64,000 nucleotides of DNA from Patescibacteria group bacterium (GCA_963169855.1 CAUJCN010000001.1:175645-239644); one strand, 5' to 3'; positions 5,619 to 62,212 are shown, numbered from the stretch's first letter. Numbers and translations are program-made. Notes: generated by a model from the sequence alone, not told the origin.

Positions 5619-6623
5619 ATGAAAAAAGTTCTACTTATCTCAATTCCGCTGTTCCTGCTTTGCACATGTGTTTTAGTTATTGGAGGATTCGTGTTCGCAT
5701 TCAATTCTAATACAAATATTCCAGTAGTTTCCAATTTGGTAGAGCGATTAGAAAACGTGTTTGTAAATGAAGAGACTTTCAAAACTCAACTTGTTAAAGA
5801 GATCGAAAATATAGTAAATTCTGATTTTGAAAATGTAGCACCAGCATCAAACGAATTTAAAAGTGTAGCAGCAAATTATGTTTTGAAACTAGATGTTGAA
5901 TCTGAAGAAGGGGATTTTGGATTGGACTCATCTGGCGACATTATGGGAGATTCTAACGGAGATAAAGTTTTCGTTCGAGCTGATCTCGATCTAGATTTCT
6001 CTGGAATCAAGGTTGGGGGAGAAGTGTTCCTAATGAATTTTATAAATAACATGAAGTCTGAAACATTTATTAAATTAGAAGAAATTCCTTCTTTCTTATC
6101 AATGAACATTGAAGGATTAGAAGATGCAGAAGGTGAATGGGTTTTCTTTTCAGGAGATGTTGAACGAACAATTGAATCTACACCATTTGCAGAATTAGAT
6201 ACTGAAAAGAAAGCAGAGCTGCTTCAGTTAATTAATACAGATGAATTTAAGTCTTTAATAAGCCGAGGAAACGATAGAGTTTCTCCTACTACTAATATCC
6301 GATCCAAGTGTATTATTGTTGAAGCAAACGAGCTTAAGATGACTCAGCTTTTAAACAAATACGAAGAGATTGCTGGCAGCGATATTGAACATGATTTATT
6401 ACCTACACCTTTTAGATTTACAAGCGAAATGTGTTTTGGAAGAAAAGATGGAGCACTTTCATACTTAAATTTTGAAATATTTTCACCACAAGGAAATGGA
6501 AGCTTTACTTTAGGAGATATTCGATACTCAAACGAGCCTGTGAGTTTAGAAAAGCCTTCAGATTATATTAGTATCGAAGATCTAAATCTTTCCTTTCCAT
6601 TCTTGGAAGGAGCCCAATTCTAG
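5619..6623 (+). CDS. hypothetical secreted/membrane-anchored acidic protein
   Basis: 334 aa, N-terminal TM/signal anchor. Confidence 0.5.
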   Translation: MKKVLLISIPLFLLCTCVLVIGGFVFAFNSNTNIPVVSNLVERLENVFVNEETFKTQLVKEIENIVNSDFENVAPASNEFKSVAANYVLKLDVESEEGDFGLDSSGDIMGDSNGDKVFVRADLDLDFSGIKVGGEVFLMNFINNMKSETFIKLEEIPSFLSMNIEGLEDAEGEWVFFSGDVERTIESTPFAELDTEKKAELLQLINTDEFKSLISRGNDRVSPTTNIRSKCIIVEANELKMTQLLNKYEEIAGSDIEHDLLPTPFRFTSEMCFGRKDGALSYLNFEIFSPQGNGSFTLGDIRYSNEPVSLEKPSDYISIEDLNLSFPFLEGAQF

Positions 6624-6627
6624 CATC

Positions 6628-6658
6628 ATGACGCCCATTTTGGGCGTCATTTCTATAT
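6628..6658 (+). terminator. rho-independent terminator
   Basis: perfect hairpin ATGACGCCCA-tttt-GGGCGTCAT followed by TTCTATATATT. Confidence 0.6.
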
Positions 6659-6875
6659 ATTCGTGATATAATATATATGTATAAATCATCAATATTTTGT
6701 GCTTTATACAGATCTTTAACAAGGAAGTAACTTACTACGAATTGGACCATTGGTTGTGGGCTTTAGGCGCTTCTGTTCCGTACTTGATACGGAATCTCAT
6801 GAGCATCTAAAGCTCACACCAGTACCAATTTCGGAGTACTGGCAAATCGGAGCACAACAAGGAGAAAGTTCTACC

Positions 6876-7358
6876 ATGAAGAAGCTCATCGTCATTTCGC
6901 TGCTCATCGTCGTTTCGCTGCTCGCCGTTTTCAACGCATTCGCCCAGGAACAAACCGTCGTCATCCAGAATGTCGTCGAGTGCCCCGTCACCACCATAGG
7001 CTGGTGGGGATTAACAGGAGAACTCATCAACGACGCCCCAACGAGGGACGTAATAGTCCATTGGGACGACACCAACCAACGCTCCGCGAAGGAACTCGGC
7101 GTCGACCCAGAGCAAGGGTGGATCGTCTGGTGCACGGAGAGCGATATGCTCAGCCGCGTTGCCACAGTCGAGGGCGAGCCGAACCGAATCACTATCGATG
7201 GTGACGAATATTGCCAAGTGGCGGGCTTCGTTACTAACCTCCCGGATCGACGAGTTGTTGGCGTTACGGCGGCCGCGGCGTATGCATTCACGGAATGTCT
7301 CGGGGAGACGATCGTCGAAAGCTCATACGTAAGGACTTTCGGGATCGTCTTCGACTAG
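6876..7358 (+). CDS. small secreted 4-Cys protein encoded in a GC-rich island
   Basis: RBS GGAGAAAG 7 nt before ATG; signal peptide MKKLIVISLLIVVSLLAVFNAFA; about 50-60% GC with high GC3, versus about 33% in flanks; ORF track lists 6750..7358 from a TTG. Confidence 0.5.
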   Translation: MKKLIVISLLIVVSLLAVFNAFAQEQTVVIQNVVECPVTTIGWWGLTGELINDAPTRDVIVHWDDTNQRSAKELGVDPEQGWIVWCTESDMLSRVATVEGEPNRITIDGDEYCQVAGFVTNLPDRRVVGVTAAAAYAFTECLGETIVESSYVRTFGIVFD

Positions 7359-7369
7359 CCAGCGTTACT

Positions 7370-7405
7370 TCCTCCCGGACCCGCTTAATCGCGTGGTCCG
7401 GAGGA
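7370..7405 (+). terminator. GC-rich hairpin terminator after island ORF
   Basis: TCCTCCCGGACC...GGTCCGGAGGA imperfect 11-bp stem followed by T-rich stretch. Confidence 0.45.
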
Positions 7406-7439
7406 CTTTAATCTTAAATTTCAAATACTTCTCTTTTTT

Positions 7440-7851
7440 GATCTTTTATTCTTAAACCTTCAATCTTTTTAGATATTGATCAATCTCTTAGTAAATTATA
7501 TAATCTAGATATTCACAACGATAAAGGTTCCCAGCCTTTGGAGTGAGAATGGAACTACTATTGTCATATTGAGCCTGTCGAAATATAGACAATTGGATAA
7601 CATTCCTCAGAACTCAACTGAGATAACACAAATGAGAACTAGTAAATTGCTAGTTACAGAGTCTTTAATAGCAATATTAAGGAAAAGCAAGATGGTACCA
7701 CGATCGTGTACACCGAAGCGTTTGCGTAGGTTGTAAGCCTCGTTCTTGCTAAATACTATTACCCGTAGTGTTTAGCAAGAATGGGGCTTTTTTTGTAGCT
7801 AAAGGCGTCAAATCGCCTCTGGCTAATATATTTAAATTTTATTTTGTAATT
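7440..7851 (+). promoter_or_regulatory. proS 5' leader with candidate attenuator (T-box-like motif plus long terminator hairpin)
   Basis: about 410 nt noncoding; GAUGGUACCACG at 7691-7702 resembles T-box GGUGGUACCGCG; 19-bp hairpin 7735-7789 followed by U-tract, 57 nt before proS ATG. Confidence 0.35.
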
Positions 7852-9324
7852 ATGGACGACAAGAAAATTACTCCAAGAGCCGAGGACTATTCTCAATGGT
7901 ATCTTGATATTGTAGAGAAAGCTGAACTTGCAGAAAACTCAGCGGTTAGAGGATGCATGGTAATTAAACCTTACGGTTACGCTCTTTGGGAAAACTTTCA
8001 AAAAGTATTAGATGGAAAGTTCAAAGAACTTGGTCACGTAAATGCTTACTTTCCTTTGTTAATTCCAAAATCATTTTTAACAAAAGAAGCAAAACATGTT
8101 GAAGGATTTGCTCAAGAAACAGCAGTTGTAACTCATTACAGATTAAAAACTGATCCAGTAACAAGAGAAGTTATTGTTGATCCAGAAGCAAAATTAGAAG
8201 AAGAATTAGTTATCAGACCAACATCAGAAACCATTATTTACGATACTTACTCAAACTGGATTAAATCTTACAGAGATTTACCATTACTGATTAATCAATG
8301 GGCAAATGTTTTAAGATGGGAAATGCGAACAAGACCATTCTTAAGAACAGCAGAATTTCTATGGCAAGAAGGTCACACAGTTCATGCGACTTTAGAAGAA
8401 GCTGAAGAAGAAGCAATTCAAATGCTGAAAGTTTATCAGTGGTTTGCAGAAGAATATCTTGCGATTCCAGTTATCCCTGGTCAAAAATCAGAATCTGAAA
8501 AATTTGCAGGAGCATTACGAACTTATACAATCGAAGCAATGATGCAGGATGGCAAAGCTCTTCAAGCGGGAACTTCACATAATTTAGGTGATAACTTCGC
8601 AAAAGCTTTTGATATAAAATTCTTGGACAAAGATGAAACTGAGAAATATGCTTGGCAAACAAGTTGGGGATTAAGCACAAGAATGATCGGAGCATTAATT
8701 ATGACTCACAGCGATGACAAAGGATTAGTTGTTCCACCAAAAATTGCACCAACTCAAATTGTTATAGTTCCAATTTGGAAAGATGATTCTCAAAAAGAGT
8801 TAGTATTAGCAGAGGCTAAGAAATTGAAAGAACAATTTGCAGGATTCAGCGTAAAATTAGACGATAGAGACTACAACACTCCTGGAGAGAAATTCTACCA
8901 GTGGGAAAAGAAAGGAGTGCCTTTGAGAGTAGAAATCGGACCAAAAGATATCGAGAAAAATCAGGTCGTATTTGTAAGAAGAGACAGCGGAGAAAAATCT
9001 TTTATCCCAATGAGTGAAGTTTCATCTCAAGCTAAATCCACACTAGATAATATCCAATCTTCACTTTACGAAAAAGCAAAGGCGTTTAGAGATTCTAGAG
9101 TTTACGAAGTAAATTCATACGAAGAATTGAAAGATGTTGTAGAAAATAAAAATGGATTTGCTTTAGCATACTGGGATGATTCTGCAGAAAACGAAGCGAA
9201 GATTAAAGAAGAAACTAAAGCCACAATCAGATGTATTCCTTTTGAGCAGAATGGAGTTTCTGGAAAATCAATTATTTCTGGAAATGAAACTAATCATAGA
9301 GTAATTTTTGCAAAAGCTTATTAA
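7852..9324 (+). CDS. proS: prolyl-tRNA synthetase, archaeal/eukaryotic-type class II
   Basis: [26 protein letters not shown]...[15 protein letters not shown]-terminus, motif 2 [15 protein letters not shown]-terminal zinc-binding-type domain; ORF track start 7768 is an upstream in-frame ATG inside the terminator hairpin. Confidence 0.9.
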
Positions 9325-20025: not shown

Positions 20026-21104
20026 TCTCTAAGATTCTTGTAAATTATATTCACGCATCCTGCGAATGGGATTGCTAATAACGCTCCTATCGCACTTCCT
20101 GTCAGCGAGAATCCAGCAATAATTACCAAGATTGAAACAATTGGGTTTAAATCAATCGCCTTTCTCATAATCACAGGAACCAAGAATACTCCTTCAATTT
20201 GCTGAATCAGAATAAAGCTGATCAAAATATAAACAATAATTGCAGCAACACTTCCAGTTAAAATTGCTAAAAGAACAGCAAACACCAAAGTAATTGTTGG
20301 ACCTAGGTTTGGTAGTGCCTCTAGAATTGCAGCAATCAGCGAGATAAGCAATGCAAATCTTCCAAGATCGTAATCCTGAACAAATAAGCCAGGAATCGAG
20401 ATAACTATATAAGTTAGTAAACCAACGAAGAACATTAACGCTATCTGCCCCACTAACCAACTACCCAAACCAGTCTTCATCTGAGTGAAAATCTTATTCC
20501 ATTTTTGTCTCTGATTTTCGTTTTTCAGGAAATAATTCACTCCCTCTTCAAAGAAATCTTTCTTTGGAAGAATCATATACAGGGATATGAAAATCACTAA
20601 GAAAATATTCAAAAGTCCTGCTGCTATTCCACCAGCAATCTTTAATCCCGCAGCTCCAACTCCATTAAAATTTCCTAGAAAGTTAGCATCAAAAACCTGA
20701 TTCAATTCAATTTCATTATTCGCAAGCTGATCAATTTTACCCACGACATTCGATACAGGTTCTGATAAAACTGGGAATCTATCATCAACAAAAGATTGAA
20801 TACTGTCTGAATTTAATTCAACATCCTGTAAAGCAGTTCTAACTTCGTTGTAAGTAGCATTCAGAATTAAACTTAAAACAAATGAAGTCAAAGCTATCAA
20901 ACCCATAAAGACAAATGCAATTGCCAAGCCTCGTGGAATCTTCTTTCTTTGAAGATAATCTACAGTTGGTTTCAGTCCAGCAAAAATAATAAATGCTGAG
21001 AAAACAATTATAAATATAGAGTAGACTTCACTAAAAAACAGAACAAAACCTAGAAGTAGAATTCCGATAAGGATGTTTTTGGGAGAGAATAATTCAAATT
21101 GCAT
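20022..21104 (-). CDS. AI-2E family (PerM/UPF0118) transporter-like membrane protein
   Basis: 360 aa, about 8 predicted TM helices with typical AI-2E size/topology. Confidence 0.45.
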   Translation of the reverse strand: MQFELFSPKNILIGILLLGFVLFFSEVYSIFIIVFSAFIIFAGLKPTVDYLQRKKIPRGLAIAFVFMGLIALTSFVLSLILNATYNEVRTALQDVELNSDSIQSFVDDRFPVLSEPVSNVVGKIDQLANNEIELNQVFDANFLGNFNGVGAAGLKIAGGIAAGLLNIFLVIFISLYMILPKKDFFEEGVNYFLKNENQRQKWNKIFTQMKTGLGSWLVGQIALMFFVGLLTYIVISIPGLFVQDYDLGRFALLISLIAAILEALPNLGPTITLVFAVLLAILTGSVAAIIVYILISFILIQQIEGVFLVPVIMRKAIDLNPIVSILVIIAGFSLTGSAIGALLAIPFAGCVNIIYKNLRD

Positions 21105-21199
21105 AAAAATGCGTTAACTAAAGGAATATTACCATGATCTAAAACATCTGAATACCCTACAGATAAACGCTATAGTGAGCGCAAGAATAAATGATGCAT

Positions 21200-21263
21200 G
21201 TTGAAGCACTCGAAATGTTCAACAAAAGAATGAATGATGTCATGGTGAGGCACTCGAACCATC
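21200..21263. repeat. two tandem hairpins of the ATGGT-TCGANNNNCCTC-ACCAT family (left flank of GIY-YIG gene)
   Basis: GTTGAA-GCACTCGAAAT-GTTCAAC and GATGTCATGGTGAGGCACTCGAACCATC. Confidence 0.7.
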
Positions 21264-21569
21264 ATCATTCTTTCTCTCTCCTAGACTATAACGTTGTGCT
21301 AACTTACTAATAAGATCGTAATCGTTTTTAATTAAAGCTTCTTTCTTAGCTCTAGACCACCTCTTAATTTGTTTTTCAAAAGCAATCGCATAATTTATAT
21401 CATTGAATTCAAAAGTGGCACAAACAATAATCGGTCTTCTTTTGTAAGTGTAACAACGATTATTCAATCCATTAGAATGCTCAGAAATTCTTCTATCTAA
21501 ATTATTAGTTACTCCTATATAAAAAGTATCGTCAATACACCTAAGAATATACACATAAAAAGACTTCAT
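21240..21569 (-). CDS. GIY-YIG nuclease family protein (COG2827/YhbQ-like)
   Basis: FYVYILRCIDDTFYIGVTNNLDRRISEH signature. Confidence 0.65.
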   Translation of the reverse strand: MKSFYVYILRCIDDTFYIGVTNNLDRRISEHSNGLNNRCYTYKRRPIIVCATFEFNDINYAIAFEKQIKRWSRAKKEALIKNDYDLISKLAQRYSLGERKNDDGSSASP

Positions 21570-21632
21570 ATTTGAAGAATACTACTAACCTCTGAGAAGT
21601 TCTTTGTCATGAAATACAAATTCCTTCTTTGT

Positions 21633-21657
21633 ACGGTTCGAGAGCCTCACCGTGACA
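21633..21657. repeat. hairpin repeat of same family, inverted relative to 21236-21263 (right flank of GIY-YIG gene)
   Basis: ACGGTTCGAGAGCCTCACCGTGACA; reverse complement matches left copy at 21/23 positions. Confidence 0.7.
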
Positions 21658-21705
21658 AAGTTATAAGCACTCAAATCGGAACTAACTTTGATATAATGCA
21701 TATGT

Positions 21706-23178
21706 ATGACAATTCTAGATACCAAGAACGAAAATTTCCAAACTACAGTAAGGACAGCCCCTAAAAAGCCGGGTTGTTATATGTATAAGGATTCGTCCGG
21801 AACTATTATCTACATTGGCAAAGCAAAGAATCTTTTCAATAGAGTTCGAAGCTATTTTATGAACTACCCCAAGTTAGAAATTAGAATTCAGCAAATGATA
21901 GATCTGGCAGTTGAAGTTGAGTATCTGGTAGTCGATTCTGATGTTGAATCGATAATTCTAGAAACGAATCTAATCAAAAAATACCACCCTAAATACAACA
22001 TTTTGATGAGGGATGATAAAAACTACAGCTGGATTCTTTTTGAGAAACAGATAAAGGGCAAGAATGATTTCCCAAGAATTAGAATTGTAAGAGATAACTC
22101 AGAACCAAATGCAGATTACTTTGGACCTTTTCCATCCAGACTTCCATTAAAAAACATTTTAAGAAGAGCAAGAAAAGTTTTTCCTTATGCGAGTTGTAAC
22201 AGAACAATTGTTCAAGTTTCAAACGATCCACTGCAAGTTGAAACAAACAATAGCATCCCTTGCCTATACTACCATTTAGGACTATGTAGCGCTCCATGTG
22301 CAAGTAAAGAAAATAGAGAAGATTACATGAAAAATTTCAACAACATAAAAAGAATTTTTCAAGGTCAAAAGGGCGAAATCATTAACGAACTTGAAGACAA
22401 AATGAAAATACTTTCTGAATCCAGAGAATACGAAAAAGCCGCTGAAGTTAGAGACAGAATCGATGATATTCAATACGTGACAAAGAGAATCAAAATAGAT
22501 AATAATGTTGATGATATAGTTGTAGCAGGGCTTGTAGAAGCTGCCAGAGAAAATGGAATTAACGAGCTAATTGAAAAATTGAAATTTCCTGCTAGCGTTT
22601 TAAGTAATCACAAAGGTTTTAGAATCGAGTGTTACGACATTAGTAACTTCCAGGGATCGAACCCGGTTGGAGCTATGACAGTAATGATTGATGGTGAATT
22701 GAGAACTGATTTGTACAGAAGATTTAAGATTCAAATCAAAGATACTCCAGATGATTTTGCCATGCATCAAGAAATGCTGGAAAGAAGGCTAAAGTACTTG
22801 ATAGACGATCAGAACAAACTAAAAGACGAATCTTTGAAGCAAATGCCAGATCTAATAATTGTAGATGGAGGAAAAGGTCAATTGAGTTCAACATTCTTAA
22901 TTCTTAAACAATTTGGTTTAGAAAAACGAATTCCAATCGTTGGGTTAGCAAAGAGAGAAGAAGAGATATTCAAACTGAATAATCAATTTGATGTTTCAAA
23001 TAATGAATCTAAAGGTCAGGAAAAAGCAAAAAAATTGTTAGCAAAGTTCGGTAGAGTAATGCTTCCAAGAAGATCCGAGTCTTTATTTATAGTTCAGAGA
23101 ATTAGAGACGAAGCTCATAGATTTGGAATTACATTCCACAGAAAACTGAGAAGTAAAGCAATGAAACTTAATGATTGA
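21706..23178 (+). CDS. uvrC: excinuclease ABC subunit C, short form lacking C-terminal (HhH)2 domain
   Basis: N-terminal GIY-YIG (GCYMYKDSSGTIIYIGKAKNLFNRVRSYF), Cys motif CLYYHLGLCSAPC, UvrBC domain EYEKAAEVRDRIDDIQ, ends shortly after EAHRFGITFHR. Confidence 0.8.
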   Translation: MTILDTKNENFQTTVRTAPKKPGCYMYKDSSGTIIYIGKAKNLFNRVRSYFMNYPKLEIRIQQMIDLAVEVEYLVVDSDVESIILETNLIKKYHPKYNILMRDDKNYSWILFEKQIKGKNDFPRIRIVRDNSEPNADYFGPFPSRLPLKNILRRARKVFPYASCNRTIVQVSNDPLQVETNNSIPCLYYHLGLCSAPCASKENREDYMKNFNNIKRIFQGQKGEIINELEDKMKILSESREYEKAAEVRDRIDDIQYVTKRIKIDNNVDDIVVAGLVEAARENGINELIEKLKFPASVLSNHKGFRIECYDISNFQGSNPVGAMTVMIDGELRTDLYRRFKIQIKDTPDDFAMHQEMLERRLKYLIDDQNKLKDESLKQMPDLIIVDGGKGQLSSTFLILKQFGLEKRIPIVGLAKREEEIFKLNNQFDVSNNESKGQEKAKKLLAKFGRVMLPRRSESLFIVQRIRDEAHRFGITFHRKLRSKAMKLND

Positions 23179-39359: not shown

Positions 39360-41222
39360 TTACTCCCCCTTCCTCAACTCATACATCCTCACAATCTCCT
39401 CAACACTATTAGGGTAATCCTTATCTCGATTCCAAATCTTTAATCTTGGAAATCGAATAGACAACCCTTTTGTTGAATCATCGTTTTTTACTTTTGCAGG
39501 AATTCCTTTCGCTGCTGTGTGGTTTGGGCTTCTTGTAATTTCGTCTGCAACAATTTCCATAACTAATTTTGGTTTTACCCAAACGTCTGGAACTAAAGTT
39601 TTATCTACAACATAGTTTTCTGGTTTCTCGGCCACGAAATGTTTCTGTAAGTCTGCATTAATTGTTGGAGCTTGTTCATCTGTAAATCCGCTTCCAACTT
39701 TTCCAATAGAGTAGTAGGTATCGTTACTTGCATCGTAGACCCCTGCCAACATCGCACCAAATCCGTATTTATTTCTCGCACCTTGTCCGTAGAAATATCC
39801 CAACACAACAACGTCGATTGTATCTACCAAGTGACTTTGAGTATTAGCCTTCAGCTTAATCCATTTGAAATTTCTTGTTCCAGGTTCGTATGTAGATTTT
39901 TCTTCTTTAGTAATTATTCCTTCTAAACCTGCATTCACTTTGCTGAAGAAATATTCTTCCAACTCAGCTTCTGATTGCATTTGTTTTGTCTCCAGCATCT
40001 TTAATGAGCCCTGAGCTTTGAGCTTTGAGCTTTGAGCTTCCTCCTTAGAGTTCTGAGAAAGCAAAGACTCCAGTATTCTCAGCCGTTCCTCTATCGGTTC
40101 CTGAGTTATATCTTTTCCATTCAAATACAAAACATCAAAACACATTGCTCGGACAGGAATATCTTTTGCATAAGTTTCCACATCGTACTTTCTTCTTCGC
40201 TGCATTGTTTCCTGATAAGTTTTGTAATTACCATCTTCTTCTACACCAATAATTTCTGAATCCAAAACAACAGAATCAACACCAAGATTTTTTACAGATT
40301 CCAAAAGCTCTGGGAAGTTGTCTGTAAGTCTTTCCATATTTCGACTGTAGACTTCGGCCTCACCAGTTTTTTTATCAAAATGAATTTGACCACGTAGTCC
40401 ATCCAACTTTGGCTGAACAAAACACTTCGGCATTCTTTCCCAAACAGAAGCTGCAGAATCTTCTCGCTCCACAAGCTTAGATGCGATTGGAACTCCAGGA
40501 ACAATTTTAATTTTTGATAGATTTTCAATTGCTGAAGATTTATCAGTGAGAATAATTTCCGCAAGTTGACCAGCATCTGCTCTTGCTCCAAAAGCCTGAT
40601 CAATTAATTTTCTTGTAGATTTATCTCCAGACACAACAAAAGAAAGAGAGTCGAGTAGAGTTTTGTCGCTAGCACCAAGCCTTAAGTCTCCTAAAATAAT
40701 TCTAGTTGTGAATTTAATTTCCTGAGGTTCAAGAATTCTGAAAAGGTTTTCGTACAATTTTAATTTTGCATCTTGAGATCCTTTCCCAGAAGTTTGAGTT
40801 ATTTTAATTAAGAATGAGTGTAGTTCTTCGATAGTTTCGACTTTGATGTCTGTCACATCGAGCTTGTCGAGATGTGTTTCACCATTTTGGTTATCATGCT
40901 TCGACAGGCTCAGCATGACATCTCCTTTGAATGTTTCTCGAATTTCTGCTGCAACATTCCCCATATCCCCAAGTTTACCCAACATCGACTTAACATCTTC
41001 AGAAGTAAATTCCTGAAGTTTTCTGATAATCATTTTGTCTGAGAAGTTGAATTCAATCGGCTCGAATTTTGGTGCAACTCTACCTTGAAGAAAGTAGATA
41101 AAAAATCGAGCTTCTTTTGGTGAAAGCTGGGTTAGAAAATCCGCGGTTAAAGTGGTTAGATCGTTTCTAGAACTTGTGGTTTCGAGTTTGTTTAAAAAAG
41201 CTGAGAGTTCTGTTAGTTTCAT
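39360..41222 (-). CDS. ATP-dependent DNA ligase
   Basis: adenylation motif I KLDGLRGQIH, EGIITK, WIKLK motifs. Confidence 0.8.
   Translation of the reverse strand: MKLTELSAFLNKLETTSSRNDLTTLTADFLTQLSPKEARFFIYFLQGRVAPKFEPIEFNFSDKMIIRKLQEFTSEDVKSMLGKLGDMGNVAAEIRETFKGDVMLSLSKHDNQNGETHLDKLDVTDIKVETIEELHSFLIKITQTSGKGSQDAKLKLYENLFRILEPQEIKFTTRIILGDLRLGASDKTLLDSLSFVVSGDKSTRKLIDQAFGARADAGQLAEIILTDKSSAIENLSKIKIVPGVPIASKLVEREDSAASVWERMPKCFVQPKLDGLRGQIHFDKKTGEAEVYSRNMERLTDNFPELLESVKNLGVDSVVLDSEIIGVEEDGNYKTYQETMQRRRKYDVETYAKDIPVRAMCFDVLYLNGKDITQEPIEERLRILESLLSQNSKEEAQSSKLKAQGSLKMLETKQMQSEAELEEYFFSKVNAGLEGIITKEEKSTYEPGTRNFKWIKLKANTQSHLVDTIDVVVLGYFYGQGARNKYGFGAMLAGVYDASNDTYYSIGKVGSGFTDEQAPTINADLQKHFVAEKPENYVVDKTLVPDVWVKPKLVMEIVADEITRSPNHTAAKGIPAKVKNDDSTKGLSIRFPRLKIWNRDKDYPNSVEEIVRMYELRKGE
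40006..40040. repeat. heptanucleotide tandem repeat (GAGCTTT)n inside ligase CDS
   Basis: gagccct gagcttt gagcttt gagcttt gagcttc; encodes EAQSSKLKAQGSL on coding strand. Confidence 0.7.
40895..40920. repeat. hairpin-family copy embedded in ligase CDS
   Basis: CATGCTTCGACAGGCTCAGCATGACA; the 12-mer TCGACAGGCTCA is also at 47943 and, reverse-complemented, at 7569. Confidence 0.6.
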
Positions 41223-43393: not shown

Positions 43394-43495
43394 GAAAGAA
43401 CCCCTCTTGTGCTTCGCACTTTCTCCCTGTCATCCTGAGGCTCTCGAAGGGTTGAAAGGGGAGATGCCCGATTTATCGGGAAGAGGGGTTCTTTC
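43394..43495. repeat. GC-rich structured element with perfect 15-bp terminal inverted repeats
   Basis: GAAAGAACCCCTCTT ... AAGAGGGGTTCTTTC enclosing internal hairpin CCCGATTTATCGGG. Confidence 0.6.
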
Positions 43496-47804: not shown

Positions 47805-47850
47805 ACTATTAATATATCATATTTTGAGATACCGATTCCGATACAACCAT

Positions 47851-47911
47851 AGATCCCGTACCACCGACAGATCCCGCACCACCGACAGATCCCGCACTTG
47901 ATGCGGGATCT
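47851..47911. repeat. 18-bp tandem repeat ending in perfect hairpin
   Basis: AGATCCCGTACCACCGAC / AGATCCCGCACCACCGAC / AGATCCCGCA-cttga-TGCGGGATCT. Confidence 0.65.
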
Positions 47912-47936
47912 AATTAAAGTTTTACATATATCGCAA

Positions 47937-47962
47937 CATGGTTCGACAGGCTCACCATGACA
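47937..47962. repeat. hairpin-family copy upstream of alaS
   Basis: CATGGTTCGACAGGCTCACCATGACA. Confidence 0.65.
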
Positions 47963-47993: not shown

Positions 47994-49922
47994 ATGAAAA
48001 CGTCAGAGCAAATCAGAGAAGAATTTTTGAAATTTTGGGAAGAATCACCTAGAAACGCCAAGCTTGTTCCGAACATGTCATTAGTGCCAAATAACGATCC
48101 TACTTTACTTTTCGTAAATTCAGGAATGTTCCCACTTGTTCCTTATTTAGGAGGACAACCACACCCTTTGGGAACGAGACTTTATAATTTGCAAAGATGC
48201 GTAAGAACAATCGATATTGATGATGTAGGGGACAATCGACATTTAACTTGTTTCGAAATGATGGGCAATTGGTCACTTGGGGATTTTACAAAAGCTGAAC
48301 AAATTCCTTGGATTTTGGAACTTCATGTAGAAAGATACGGATTCGATCCATCCAGACTATACATCTCGGTTTGGGGAGGAGACGATTCTATTCCAAGAGA
48401 CGACGAAGCAATCGAACTTTGGAAAAAGGCATTCAGGAAATACGGCATCGAAGCTGAATACTCAGAAGACAGATCAAACTTACCAAAAGATTTAGAAGAA
48501 GGAAAAACTTGGAAGCCAAGAATCTTTCCATTCGGAAAGAAAGAAAATTGGTGGCAAAGAGGACCTGATGTTGTTGGAGAACTTGGAGGACCTTGTTCAG
48601 AAATTTTCTTTGATACAGGAAAAATTGTTCACGAGCAGGAAAAGTACGACATTAACGATGACTCATGGAGATTCATCGAAATCGGAAACAACGTTTTCAT
48701 GGAGTACAGATTTGATGAAAGCGGAAAGTGGGTTCAGATGGAAAAGAAGAACATCGACTTTGGGGGAGGATTTGAAAGAGTAGTTAAGTGTATTCAAGAT
48801 CAAGAAGACTTCTTTGGAACAGACATTTTCATGCCTTACATTCAAAAAGTTGAAGAGCTTTCTGGAATGAATTACAAAGACGGAAATGGAAAAGATCACG
48901 ATAAATCAAACTCATTTAGAGTTATTGCGGACCACATTAGAACAAGCGTTTTAATGATTGGAGACGGAGTTGTTCCTTCAAACAAAGACCAGGGATATAT
49001 TCTAAGAAGACTTATAAGAAGAATGATCCGACACGCTATGAAAGTTGGAATTCAAGATAATTTTGCAGAAGATTTGGCAAAAGTTGTAATCGAAAAAATG
49101 ACTCACGGTTACCCTCATTTACAAGAACAGAAAGCTCGAATTATTTCTGAATTAGTTAGAGAAGAAGAAAAGTTCTCAAAGACAATAAGCAATGGTTTGA
49201 GAGAATTAAACAAACTTGTAGACGAAGTAAATAATTCTCAGAGAACTTCCCTGCCTGCCGGCAGGCATGGGATTTCGGGAGGAGACGCTTTCAACTTGTA
49301 CGAAACTTACGGTTTTCCAGTAGAACTTACATTAGAACTTTTGAAAGAAATGGGAATTTCTGAATTTTCTATGGATGAATTCAACGCTGAACAGGAAAAA
49401 CACCAATCCGATTCTAGAGCTGGAGCAGAGCAGAAGTTTAAAGGAGGTTTAGCTGATCAGTCAGAAGAAACTACAAAACTTCATACAGCTCATCACTTGT
49501 TACTTGCAGCTTTACAGAAACTTGTTAATCCTACTATCAAGCAGAGGGGAAGTAATATTACTGCTGAAAGATTAAGAATTGACTTCAATTTGGATAGAAA
49601 ACTAACTGAAGAAGAAATCAAGAATGTAGAAGAATGGGTTAACGCAAGAATTGCAGAAAAGTTACCTGTTGTAAGATTAGAAATGAAAAAAGAAGAAGCT
49701 GAAAATATTGGTGCACAAATGGAATTCGGAGCTAAATATCCAGATGTCGTATCAATTTATTACATTGGGAATTCAGTGGAAGAATCTGTTTCTAAAGAAT
49801 TCTGCGGAGGTCCACACGTTTCCAATACTTCTGAACTTGGTGAAGGCGGAAAAACTTTCAAGATTGTAAAAGAAGAAAGTAGTGGAAGCGGAATCAGAAG
49901 AATAAAAGCTTCTTTAGTTTAA
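47994..49922 (+). CDS. alaS: alanyl-tRNA synthetase, short form lacking C-Ala domain
   Basis: N-terminal catalytic-domain motifs (LVPNNDPTLLFVNSGM, RHLTCFEMMGNWSLGDF), editing HxxxH (HTAHHLLLAAL) and CGGPHV; 642 aa. Confidence 0.85.
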   Translation: MKTSEQIREEFLKFWEESPRNAKLVPNMSLVPNNDPTLLFVNSGMFPLVPYLGGQPHPLGTRLYNLQRCVRTIDIDDVGDNRHLTCFEMMGNWSLGDFTKAEQIPWILELHVERYGFDPSRLYISVWGGDDSIPRDDEAIELWKKAFRKYGIEAEYSEDRSNLPKDLEEGKTWKPRIFPFGKKENWWQRGPDVVGELGGPCSEIFFDTGKIVHEQEKYDINDDSWRFIEIGNNVFMEYRFDESGKWVQMEKKNIDFGGGFERVVKCIQDQEDFFGTDIFMPYIQKVEELSGMNYKDGNGKDHDKSNSFRVIADHIRTSVLMIGDGVVPSNKDQGYILRRLIRRMIRHAMKVGIQDNFAEDLAKVVIEKMTHGYPHLQEQKARIISELVREEEKFSKTISNGLRELNKLVDEVNNSQRTSLPAGRHGISGGDAFNLYETYGFPVELTLELLKEMGISEFSMDEFNAEQEKHQSDSRAGAEQKFKGGLADQSEETTKLHTAHHLLLAALQKLVNPTIKQRGSNITAERLRIDFNLDRKLTEEEIKNVEEWVNARIAEKLPVVRLEMKKEEAENIGAQMEFGAKYPDVVSIYYIGNSVEESVSKEFCGGPHVSNTSELGEGGKTFKIVKEESSGSGIRRIKASLV

Positions 49923-61887: not shown

Positions 61888-62056
61888 AGGCATCCTAAAG
61901 GATGGAAGATTCAAGACCAAAGATAAGAAGATTAAAAAGAAAAAATTTACCAAGAAGATTCAAAATAAGATTAGGATTCTTCAATAGTTCTTTGTGCTTT
62001 GATCTTTTAATTTTTGATCTTGAAAAAATAATTTGAAAAATTATTATTTTCTAAGT

Positions 62057-62129
62057 GGGTAGCTAGCTCAACTGGTAGAGCATTTCTTTGACGTAGAAAA
62101 GGTTACAGGTTCGAGCCCTGTGTTACCCA
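62057..62129 (+). tRNA. tRNA-Val (GAC)
   Basis: acceptor GGGUAGC/GUUACCC, anticodon stem UUUCU/AGAAA, loop UUGACGU, T-loop UUCGAGC. Confidence 0.8.
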
Positions 62130-62179
62130 TTAAAGTAAAATATTAAGATCCAAGATTCGAAGATTCAAAAATAATAAAG

Positions 62180-62212
62180 TGTGATGGTGAGCGTTAGTCG
62201 AACCATTGACCT
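62180..62212. repeat. hairpin-family copy between tRNA-Val(GAC) and ThrRS-like gene
   Basis: reverse complement GGTCAATGGTTCGACTAACGCTCACCATCACAC. Confidence 0.6.

Follow-up and report, generated by a model that had tools for sequence, protein, structure and literature searches.

Chenal et al. (Nat Commun 2025; PMC11893778) described, under the name Ssn, single-domain GIY-YIG nucleases whose genes are flanked by a dispersed hairpin repeat, NTS/SRM. In this work, a small GIY-YIG nuclease gene lying between inverted copies of a dispersed hairpin was studied in a 64,000-nucleotide stretch of DNA from a Patescibacteria group bacterium (GCA_963169855.1 CAUJCN010000001.1:175645-239644), hereafter called the window; positions are counted from its first nucleotide. 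With a probability of roughly 0.8, this locus is an Ssn-type cassette, that is, a gene for a minimal GIY-YIG endonuclease that has its cognate hairpin, in inverted copies, on both sides; the hairpin also occurs scattered as singlets, as a doublet and as a tandem copy.

SsnA of Neisseria meningitidis (NMB0047) is a 94-aa single-domain GIY-YIG protein that belongs to CDD cd10448 (GIY-YIG_unchar_3) (PMC11893778). Ssn proteins are delimited by cd10448 or by a BLAST match to this SsnA with E<1e-10 (PMC11893778). It binds NTS (CGTCATTCCCGCGMAVGCGGGAATCYRG) only as single-stranded DNA (ssDNA) and only on one strand, and it does not bind RNA (PMC11893778). Cleavage by SsnA falls a few nucleotides upstream of NTS, and the Y6A, Y17A and E64A variants are inactive; the base triplet GTC upstream of the palindrome is most important for cleavage, and the C right after the palindrome is the most important base for binding (PMC11893778). 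Three further Ssn homologues bind and cut their own flanking repeats (PMC11893778). The SRM repeat, published as the pattern HGTCWYN(0-2)YYVSBRHN(0-5)WNVSBRGN(0-2)RNCYNB, was found near 71% of the Ssn homologues and on both sides in 42% (PMC11893778). In Neisseria, the system limits transformation by NTS-carrying ssDNA (PMC11893778). The authors likened the NTS-ssnA-NTS unit to an insertion sequence (IS), compared it with REP/RAYT and proposed a selfish or domesticated IS-like origin (PMC11893778). A literature search on GIY-YIG nucleases with hairpin repeats returned nothing relevant beyond this paper.

The earlier note on this DNA had read the locus as a REP/RAYT-like arrangement built around a GIY-YIG nuclease. 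Because of the Ssn findings, whose authors draw the same analogy, it may be concluded that this reading was right and had already been published (PMC11893778). The locus is a divergent member of the Ssn kind, and its arrangement is, in essence, the published one (PMC11893778); it was filed in this way after tests of its architecture, polarity, similarity, catalytic positions, repeat pattern and clade. Common to the window and Ssn are a small single-domain GIY-YIG protein lacking a DNA-binding domain (109 aa in the window; approximately 95 aa and below 150 aa in Ssn), a gene lying between inverted hairpin repeats of 20-50 nt that are also dispersed and clustered in the genome, and a GTC(A) at the 5' side of the hairpin that faces outward on both flanks; the arrangement looks IS-like. 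The host, a Dojkabacteria-like candidate-phyla bacterium, differs from those of the published Ssn. What the locus adds is this host lineage, a class of hairpins that escapes the published pattern, and evidence for insertion from comparisons.

The hairpin copies GATGTCATGGTGAGGCACTCGAACCATC at 21236-21263 and ACGGTTCGAGAGCCTCACCGTGACA at 21633-21657 bracket the nuclease open reading frame (ORF). In a repeat search, these segments were recovered as the inverted repeat I2, which is 23 nt long and 91% complementary with 374 nt between the copies; the coordinates and sequences given for them in the earlier note proved exact. In both copies, an 11-nt loop is closed by an inner stem of 5 bp (ATGGT/ACCAT or ACGGT/ACCGT), beyond which there is an outer stem. 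The outer stem of the downstream copy is AGAATGATG/CATCATTC with a 2-nt GA bulge, and that of the upstream copy is CTTTGT/ACAAAG. As ssDNA, the downstream hairpin folded with -11.8 kcal/mol (z=-4.26) and the upstream one with z=-4.33; only 0-1 of 200 shuffles folded as well, in agreement with the 11-nt-loop hairpins that had been proposed. The difference between the inner stems of the two copies (A-T versus G-C) is compensatory. A third hairpin in tandem had also been claimed. A copy is present there (core 21197-21223), but it is degenerate and folds weakly as ssDNA (z=-1.9). It was produced by a 43-44 nt tandem duplication, which the repeat search recovered as D3 and D6, direct repeats with a period of 43-44 nt and an identity of 89-93%.

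The 109-aa ORF matched the Pfam GIY-YIG family PF01541 with E=5.8e-18. The only Pfam matches in it were PF01541 and the overlapping T5orf172, over residues 4-76, and the conserved domain covers approximately residues 1-92. Residues Y7, Y17, R27, H31 and E65 were invariant across the homologues (alignment A1), and Y7, Y17 and E65 correspond to the catalytic Y6, Y17 and E64 of SsnA. The catalytic residues are intact. In the AlphaFold model (pLDDT confidence score 87.7, confident to about residue 100), the protein is one compact GIY-YIG domain followed by a C-terminal helix; the tail encoded by the hairpin is disordered. This tail arises from the last approximately eight codons of the ORF (GSSASP and the stop), which are read-through into the downstream hairpin; the TGA stop codon falls within the conserved TGACA of that hairpin. 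Hairpin-encoded C-terminal tails were found in about one quarter of the 120 best nuclease homologues, for example GSSASP, HGSTSSP and LRQAQGDK, the last being encoded by CTTCGACAGGCTCAGGGTGACAAA. The possibility that the nuclease is a known defence-system gene was rejected, as there was no PADLOC match and no meaningful NCBIfam match.

The relation to SsnA was examined with homologues that are themselves flanked by NTS (L298, L225 and L311) and that were found by scanning viral contigs for NTS. These proteins were collinear with the window protein at only 31-40% identity; in tblastn against them, the identity was 36-40% with E=6e-12 to 1e-6 (1-Mb database). At the NTS-flanked ssnA loci, GTCATTCCCGCG...GGAATCCAG precedes the gene and an inverted copy ending in ...GGGAATGACA follows it. 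The resulting polarity, GTCA-hairpin, gene, hairpin-TGAC, was identical at these loci (L298, L225 and L311) and in the window. In addition, the window clade has a conserved tryptophan, W71 (...IKxWSRAKKEALI), in common with NTS-type SsnA, whereas UPF0213 proteins have leucine at this position.

To see how regularly hairpins accompany such genes, 80 metagenome loci were selected solely on the similarity of the encoded protein, by tblastn and by peptide patterns from the conserved domain; a small bias of this set is possible, as the last residues of the query are hairpin-encoded, and most positive loci matched residues 1-93 only. At 17 of the 80 loci, the same loop type was found in a window-like arrangement: the upstream copy is minus-oriented and 21-132 nt from the start, and the downstream copy is plus-oriented and 14-55 nt from the end of the domain. 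At 25 of 72 loci, a strict hairpin was present on both sides; among control windows at distances above 900 nt, the proportion was 0.9%. Flanking inverted repeats scored above all 100 shuffles at 58 of 74 independent homologue loci, and 42 of those 58 carried a YGAG...YCGA core within the repeat. Flanking by inverted copies, on which the earlier proposal depended, thus recurs around other homologues. The repeats have a common design: GTCA, a short stem, (T/C)GAG, 4 to approximately 30 variable bases, TCGA(A/G) and the other half of the stem. The variable loop bases sometimes form a second stem-loop.

Hairpin classes include NTS, a TCGACTnnGCTCA class and a GTCAC-TTCGAGTGA class. A Dojkabacteria protein (P0009) and a Bacteroidetes protein (P0082) are flanked by a variant different from that of the window, GTCAC-TTCGAGTGA...TATCGAGAAG. 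In a Bacteroidetes metagenome-assembled genome (L213 3001-3297; L214), the hairpin-flanked P0082 gene adjoins cas2-cas1, and this single context was found in 22 of 24 contigs; on this ground, recent multi-copy transposition of the widely seen P0082 was rejected. A Mucilaginibacter isolate with a complete genome (CP188251.1; L215 1792-2200) has four tandem units of approximately 103 nt, each an inverted hairpin doublet, directly after the nuclease gene.

Within the window, the hairpins were searched in the orientation YNN-TTCGA-S-N-G-S-CTCA-NNR-TGACA. The exact core TTCGA-S-N-G-S-CTCA-NNR-TGACA occurred six times, at 7562(-), 21238(-), 21637(+), 40900(+), 43428(-) and 47942(+). When one mismatch was allowed, six core sites were found against 0.79 expected, and a stricter structural pattern with a perfect 3-bp stem gave six matches against 0.07 expected and added the longer-loop variant at 62181-62205(-). 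Altogether, nine hairpin copies were counted in 64 kb (Table 1), where less than one was expected, and six of them lie beyond the nuclease locus; the enrichment asked for in the earlier note is therefore present at the scale of the window. Its statement that solo copies are found in intergenic DNA held only in part: solo copies exist, but not all copies are intergenic, as the pair at 40851-40920 is inside a ligase ORF. The mutual orientation of the two hairpins in this doublet is the same as that of the pair around the nuclease gene.

Table 1. Nuclease gene and hairpin copies in the 64-kb window
Feature	Extent	Core or parts	Strand	Sequence	Context and repeat labels
Solo hairpin	7562..7585		minus	TAT-TTCGACAGGCTCA-ATATGACA	Intergenic, upstream of prolyl-tRNA synthetase gene (Pfam)
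Degenerate tandem duplicate of downstream unit	21183..21225	21197-21223	minus	Loop TTCGAGTGCTTCA	D3, D6
Downstream hairpin	21227..21275	21238-21261	minus	ATGG-TTCGAGTGCCTCA-CCATGACA	I2, I9
Single-domain GIY-YIG nuclease gene	21240..21569		minus		109-aa ORF, Pfam PF01541
Upstream hairpin, inverted relative to downstream copy	21627..21661	21634-21657	plus	ACGG-TTCGAGAGCCTCA-CCGTGACA	
Hairpin doublet	40851..40920	40851-40871 (degenerate); 40897-40920 (exact)	minus; plus		Inside ATP-dependent DNA ligase ORF
Solo hairpin	43428..43448		minus	CCC-TTCGAGAGCCTCA-GGATGACA	Divergent intergenic region
Solo hairpin	47939..47962		plus	TGG-TTCGACAGGCTCA-CCATGACA	Outer stem ATATCG/CGATAT; ssDNA fold z=-3.99
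Variant hairpin, 15-nt loop	62181..62205		minus	TGG-TTCGACTAACGCTCA-CCATCACA	Just downstream of tRNA-Val (62056-62130)

The hairpin at 47939-47962 sits 32 nt upstream of an ORF starting at 47994, which, judged from sequence alone, we take to encode alanyl-tRNA synthetase. The loop of the variant at 62181-62205 resembles the TTCGACTnnGCTCA class found around other nuclease homologues. A search of Rfam (gathering thresholds for the whole window, E-value mode for 21100-21750) gave three tRNAs and noise and no hairpin family. GGTTCGA in the motif resembles a T-loop; a tRNA fragment or attachment site was rejected, as ARAGORN reported nothing at the sites and the motif is a dispersed repeat. Promoters and terminators were likewise rejected: a consensus scan gave nothing convincing at the hairpins, and the hand-checked spacing of the -35-like TGACA did not fit.

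Beyond the window, hairpins were collected by an exact-pattern scan with one genome per species, which gave at least 119 loci. Their hosts belong to many phyla, among them Bacteroidota, Vulcanimicrobiota/Eremiobacterota, Nitrospirota, Saccharibacteria, Peribacteria and Verrucomicrobiota. Among 160 instances, the share with a Watson-Crick pair at stem positions 1, 2 and 3 beside the loop was 96, 94 and 91%, compared with 63, 35 and 52% after shuffling of the partners. Compensatory change therefore maintains the stem. Conservation is much lower in the arm opposite to the TGACA end, where it drops from 64% to 30% within four positions, and the hairpin element is therefore polar. In this set, the TGACA end was fixed by the search pattern; at most loci, unconstrained alignments of the inverted repeats around homologous genes also start with (T)GTCA. 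A nuclease homologue lies within 8 kb at only 3 of the 119 hairpin loci listed, and in all three the gene abuts the hairpin. Among ORFs within 600 nt of the hairpins at the listed loci, no transposase or other nuclease family recurs. At four hairpin-selected loci (L055, L008, L108 and L115), a full hairpin is followed by head-to-tail reiterations of partial units such as GGCTCAGGGTGACA. These units share GACAGG, and local expansion by slippage is suggested because this string is found both in the loop and at the TGACA end.

Evidence for insertion came from comparisons with related sequences. When three related cassettes from unrelated contexts were compared (alignment A3), the nucleotide sequence was conserved across the left hairpin, the gene and the right hairpin, and this conservation ended at TGTCA... 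and ...TGACA. An empty site was found in a relative with a 79%-identical UvrC, in which the AI-2E transporter gene and uvrC are divergently oriented and 125 bp apart; this interval contains no nuclease gene and no hairpin, and the corresponding interval in the window is 601 bp. The ligase ORF (39360-41222, minus strand; Pfam ATP-dependent DNA ligase) carries the doublet in frame, where it encodes ...DVMLSLSKHD...THLDKLDVTD. The doublet falls in the N-terminal DNA-binding domain, and the ligase is otherwise apparently intact. Relative to the ligase structure 2hiv in PDB, this region is a 14-residue insertion. The closest orthologues, P0122 and P0123 (83% and 74% identity), lack the doublet and have, net, approximately 54 nt less DNA there; locus L205 has no hairpin. 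As to the classical features of IS or miniature inverted-repeat transposable elements, the cassette has inverted ends and sharp conservation boundaries and encodes no transposase (Pfam: GIY-YIG and T5orf172 only). It behaves like an IS-like unit, and the hairpins behave like non-autonomous derivatives of it; the insertion evidence favours at least a mobile past of the cassette. Insertion into the tips of pre-existing hairpins was also considered, in which case palindromy would extend beyond the core; constrained folding gave a mean of 10.6 pairs against 9.2 in a swapped-arm control, an excess too small to support it.

Several observations weigh against the assignment to Ssn or against mobility. 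The published SRM pattern had no matches in the window and none at the 80 homologue loci, although canonical NTS matched in the same script; only the first block of the pattern, HGTCWY, is common to the window hairpin. The window hairpin has a covarying stem of 3-7 bp and a conserved 13-nt loop, TGAG-N4-TCGAA, whereas NTS has an 8-bp GC-rich stem and a tetraloop. The C after the palindrome, which is key for the binding of SsnA to NTS, is not conserved in the window-type hairpin. The window protein was assigned to Ssn by architecture, residues and NTS-flanked homologues and not by the cd10448 profile, and its pairwise similarity to the UPF0213 structures (35-40%) equals that to NTS-type SsnA. 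In a small neighbour-joining tree with no bootstraps and three NTS-type sequences, the window clade, with which a hairpin-flanked Sphingomonas homologue grouped, stood apart from both the NTS-type SsnA and the UPF0213/YazA clades. Protein similarity covaried only weakly with loop type (51.3% versus 49.1% identity; 46 of 1000 permutations reached this difference). Comparison of the filled and empty sites revealed no target-site duplication, and none is recognisable because these sites are too diverged. There was also no polymorphism within the population, as five other assemblies were identical over 751 nt across the cassette.

It might be supposed that the gene is a free-standing, homing-endonuclease-like one that used pre-existing hairpins as landing pads, with the hairpins spread by another enzyme or by replication slippage and having no specific link to the nuclease. 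Nucleases of the GIY-YIG superfamily are hydrolytic and perform no strand transfer by themselves; moreover, 116 of the 119 listed hairpin loci have no nuclease gene within 8 kb, and each of the flanking hairpins in the window has its own outer stem. However, no other nuclease or transposase family recurs near the listed loci. The flanking copies in several cassettes (L146 and L149) have inner bases in common that are not part of the palindrome, which is also the case in true terminal inverted repeats, and the hairpin type changes with the nuclease lineage, P0009 and P0082 carrying a different variant. Finally, four Ssn homologues directly and specifically bind and cut their flanking repeat (PMC11893778). 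This explanation is accordingly considered unlikely.

Still less probable, and largely refuted, is a housekeeping repair nuclease of the UPF0213/YazA/YhbQ type situated among regulatory or terminator hairpins of neighbouring genes. UPF0213 proteins were indeed the best sequence matches in PDB, several hairpins immediately precede genes and have the sense orientation (uvrC, the ORF at 47994 and the AI-2E transporter gene), and a T-rich stretch follows the extended downstream hairpin. Nevertheless, the nuclease gene is absent from the syntenic relative, real YazA genes stand in a trmNF-yazA-rsmI operon without hairpins, and the inverted arrangement recurs in 58 of 74 unrelated contexts. One hairpin pair is within the coding sequence of the ligase, and the consensus scan found no terminator-like site at any hairpin. 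The hairpins, with their conserved loop, polar GTCA end and usual lack of a T-run, are not generic terminators, an explanation that the earlier note had named as one to be checked. If the hairpins acted as RNA elements instead of DNA substrates, for example by stabilising mRNA or binding proteins, this would agree with the covariation of the stem and with the location of many copies in probable untranslated regions. No Rfam family matched them, however, and their orientation relative to the neighbouring genes in the window is mixed. As the copies flanking the gene are oppositely oriented, the two ends of a single transcript would differ in sequence, and SsnA does not bind RNA (PMC11893778). 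A role as RNA is therefore the least credible of these explanations, with hardly any weight left to it.

For the Ssn-type cassette, a mode of action can be proposed by analogy with the SsnA enzymes. The window protein would bind the hairpin only as ssDNA, the substrate strand being 5'-(T)GTCA-YNN-TGAG-N4-TCGAA-NNR-3', and would cut it a few nucleotides 5' of the conserved GTC. The predicted cuts are just outside the cassette and on opposite strands (plus strand, approximately 21233-21238; minus strand, approximately 21658-21663). Candidate roles are restriction of incoming ssDNA, as in Neisseria, or the selfish spread of an IS-like unit with its non-autonomous hairpins.

A wider interpretation, to which slightly less than even odds may be given, is that the window protein and many relatives from Bacteroidota and candidate phyla form a sister lineage to the NTS-type Ssn clade. 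This lineage would have its own hairpin class (GTCA, a short covarying stem, the TGAG-N4-TCGAA loop and expanded-loop variants) that is invisible to the SRM search, and the cassette and doublets would be mobile now or have been so recently, inserting between conserved genes and, in frame, into an apparently intact ligase gene. If so, the Ssn paradigm is considerably broader than reported. Because the published search pattern misses the hairpin motif of the window, an undetected share of Ssn-like nuclease/hairpin pairs is implied, and each such pair is a potential new ssDNA specificity for the tool uses proposed for Ssn (PMC11893778). The empty site, the conservation boundaries at the hairpins and the in-frame doublet in the ligase support the IS-like origin that was only hypothesised by the authors of the Ssn study.

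Some further features adjoin the locus and the solo hairpins. The neighbouring UvrC homologue (21706-23178) is short (490 aa); in Pfam, it matched the GIY-YIG, UVR and RNase H-like endonuclease domains and gave no helix-hairpin-helix match. The UvrC orthologues in related Dojkabacteria-like genomes are likewise short (484-525 aa). The solo hairpin at 7562-7585 edges a region at 6600-7760; the G+C content is highest at 6001-8000 (0.41, compared with approximately 0.34-0.35). Large overlapping ORFs at 6750-7358 (plus) and 6797-7291 (minus) had no Pfam match, and Rfam returned nothing there. This region could be an unannotated RNA or a lineage-specific gene. Just upstream of the hairpin at 47939-47962, a tandem repeat gatcccg.accaccgaca with a period of approximately 21 nt (47850-47912) is followed by a small perfect palindrome, gatcccgcacttgatgcgggatc.

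Among other known systems, the closest solved folds are those of UPF0213/YazA/YhbQ and Slx1, which have the same size and catalytic core as the window protein. The best PDB matches were the UPF0213 proteins 1zg2 and 1ywl (sequence E=2e-13 and 3e-11), followed by the nuclease domain of Slx1 with a root-mean-square deviation of 2.3-3.7 A over approximately 70 residues; UvrC structures matched much more weakly. Slx1 differs from the window protein in having an extra zinc-finger domain and in needing Slx4. The yazA gene of Bacillus subtilis (L344 283-582) and its Listeria counterpart (L345 280-552) lie in a conserved, overlapping trmNF-yazA-rsmI arrangement, and annotation of the flanks at these two loci gave no inverted repeat. 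The gene in the window, unlike those of this operon, is inserted into the interval that separates uvrC from the AI-2E transporter gene. The UPF0213-type yazA clade is probably a hairpin-less, housekeeping clade distinct from the hairpin-flanked ones.

Rickettsia palindromic elements (RPE) are palindromic repeats able to sit in frame in protein-coding genes, and they are longer than the hairpins studied here. The ligase doublet is like RPE in lying in frame within a coding gene. Rickettsia is among the SRM-rich genera (PMC11893778).

The enzyme of the window differs from RAYT, an IS200/IS605-like HUH Y1 transposase, in being a hydrolytic GIY-YIG nuclease. It lacks the HUH or catalytic-tyrosine chemistry of transposases and hence cannot rejoin DNA on its own. 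The cuts predicted for the window are on opposite strands, whereas REP/RAYT cuts are on one strand. In its arrangement, the locus is like REP/REPIN-RAYT: the gene lies within inverted short hairpins, there are many solo copies and tandem clusters, inverted doublets resemble the gene-bearing unit minus the gene, and recognition of the hairpin as ssDNA would be the expected mode.

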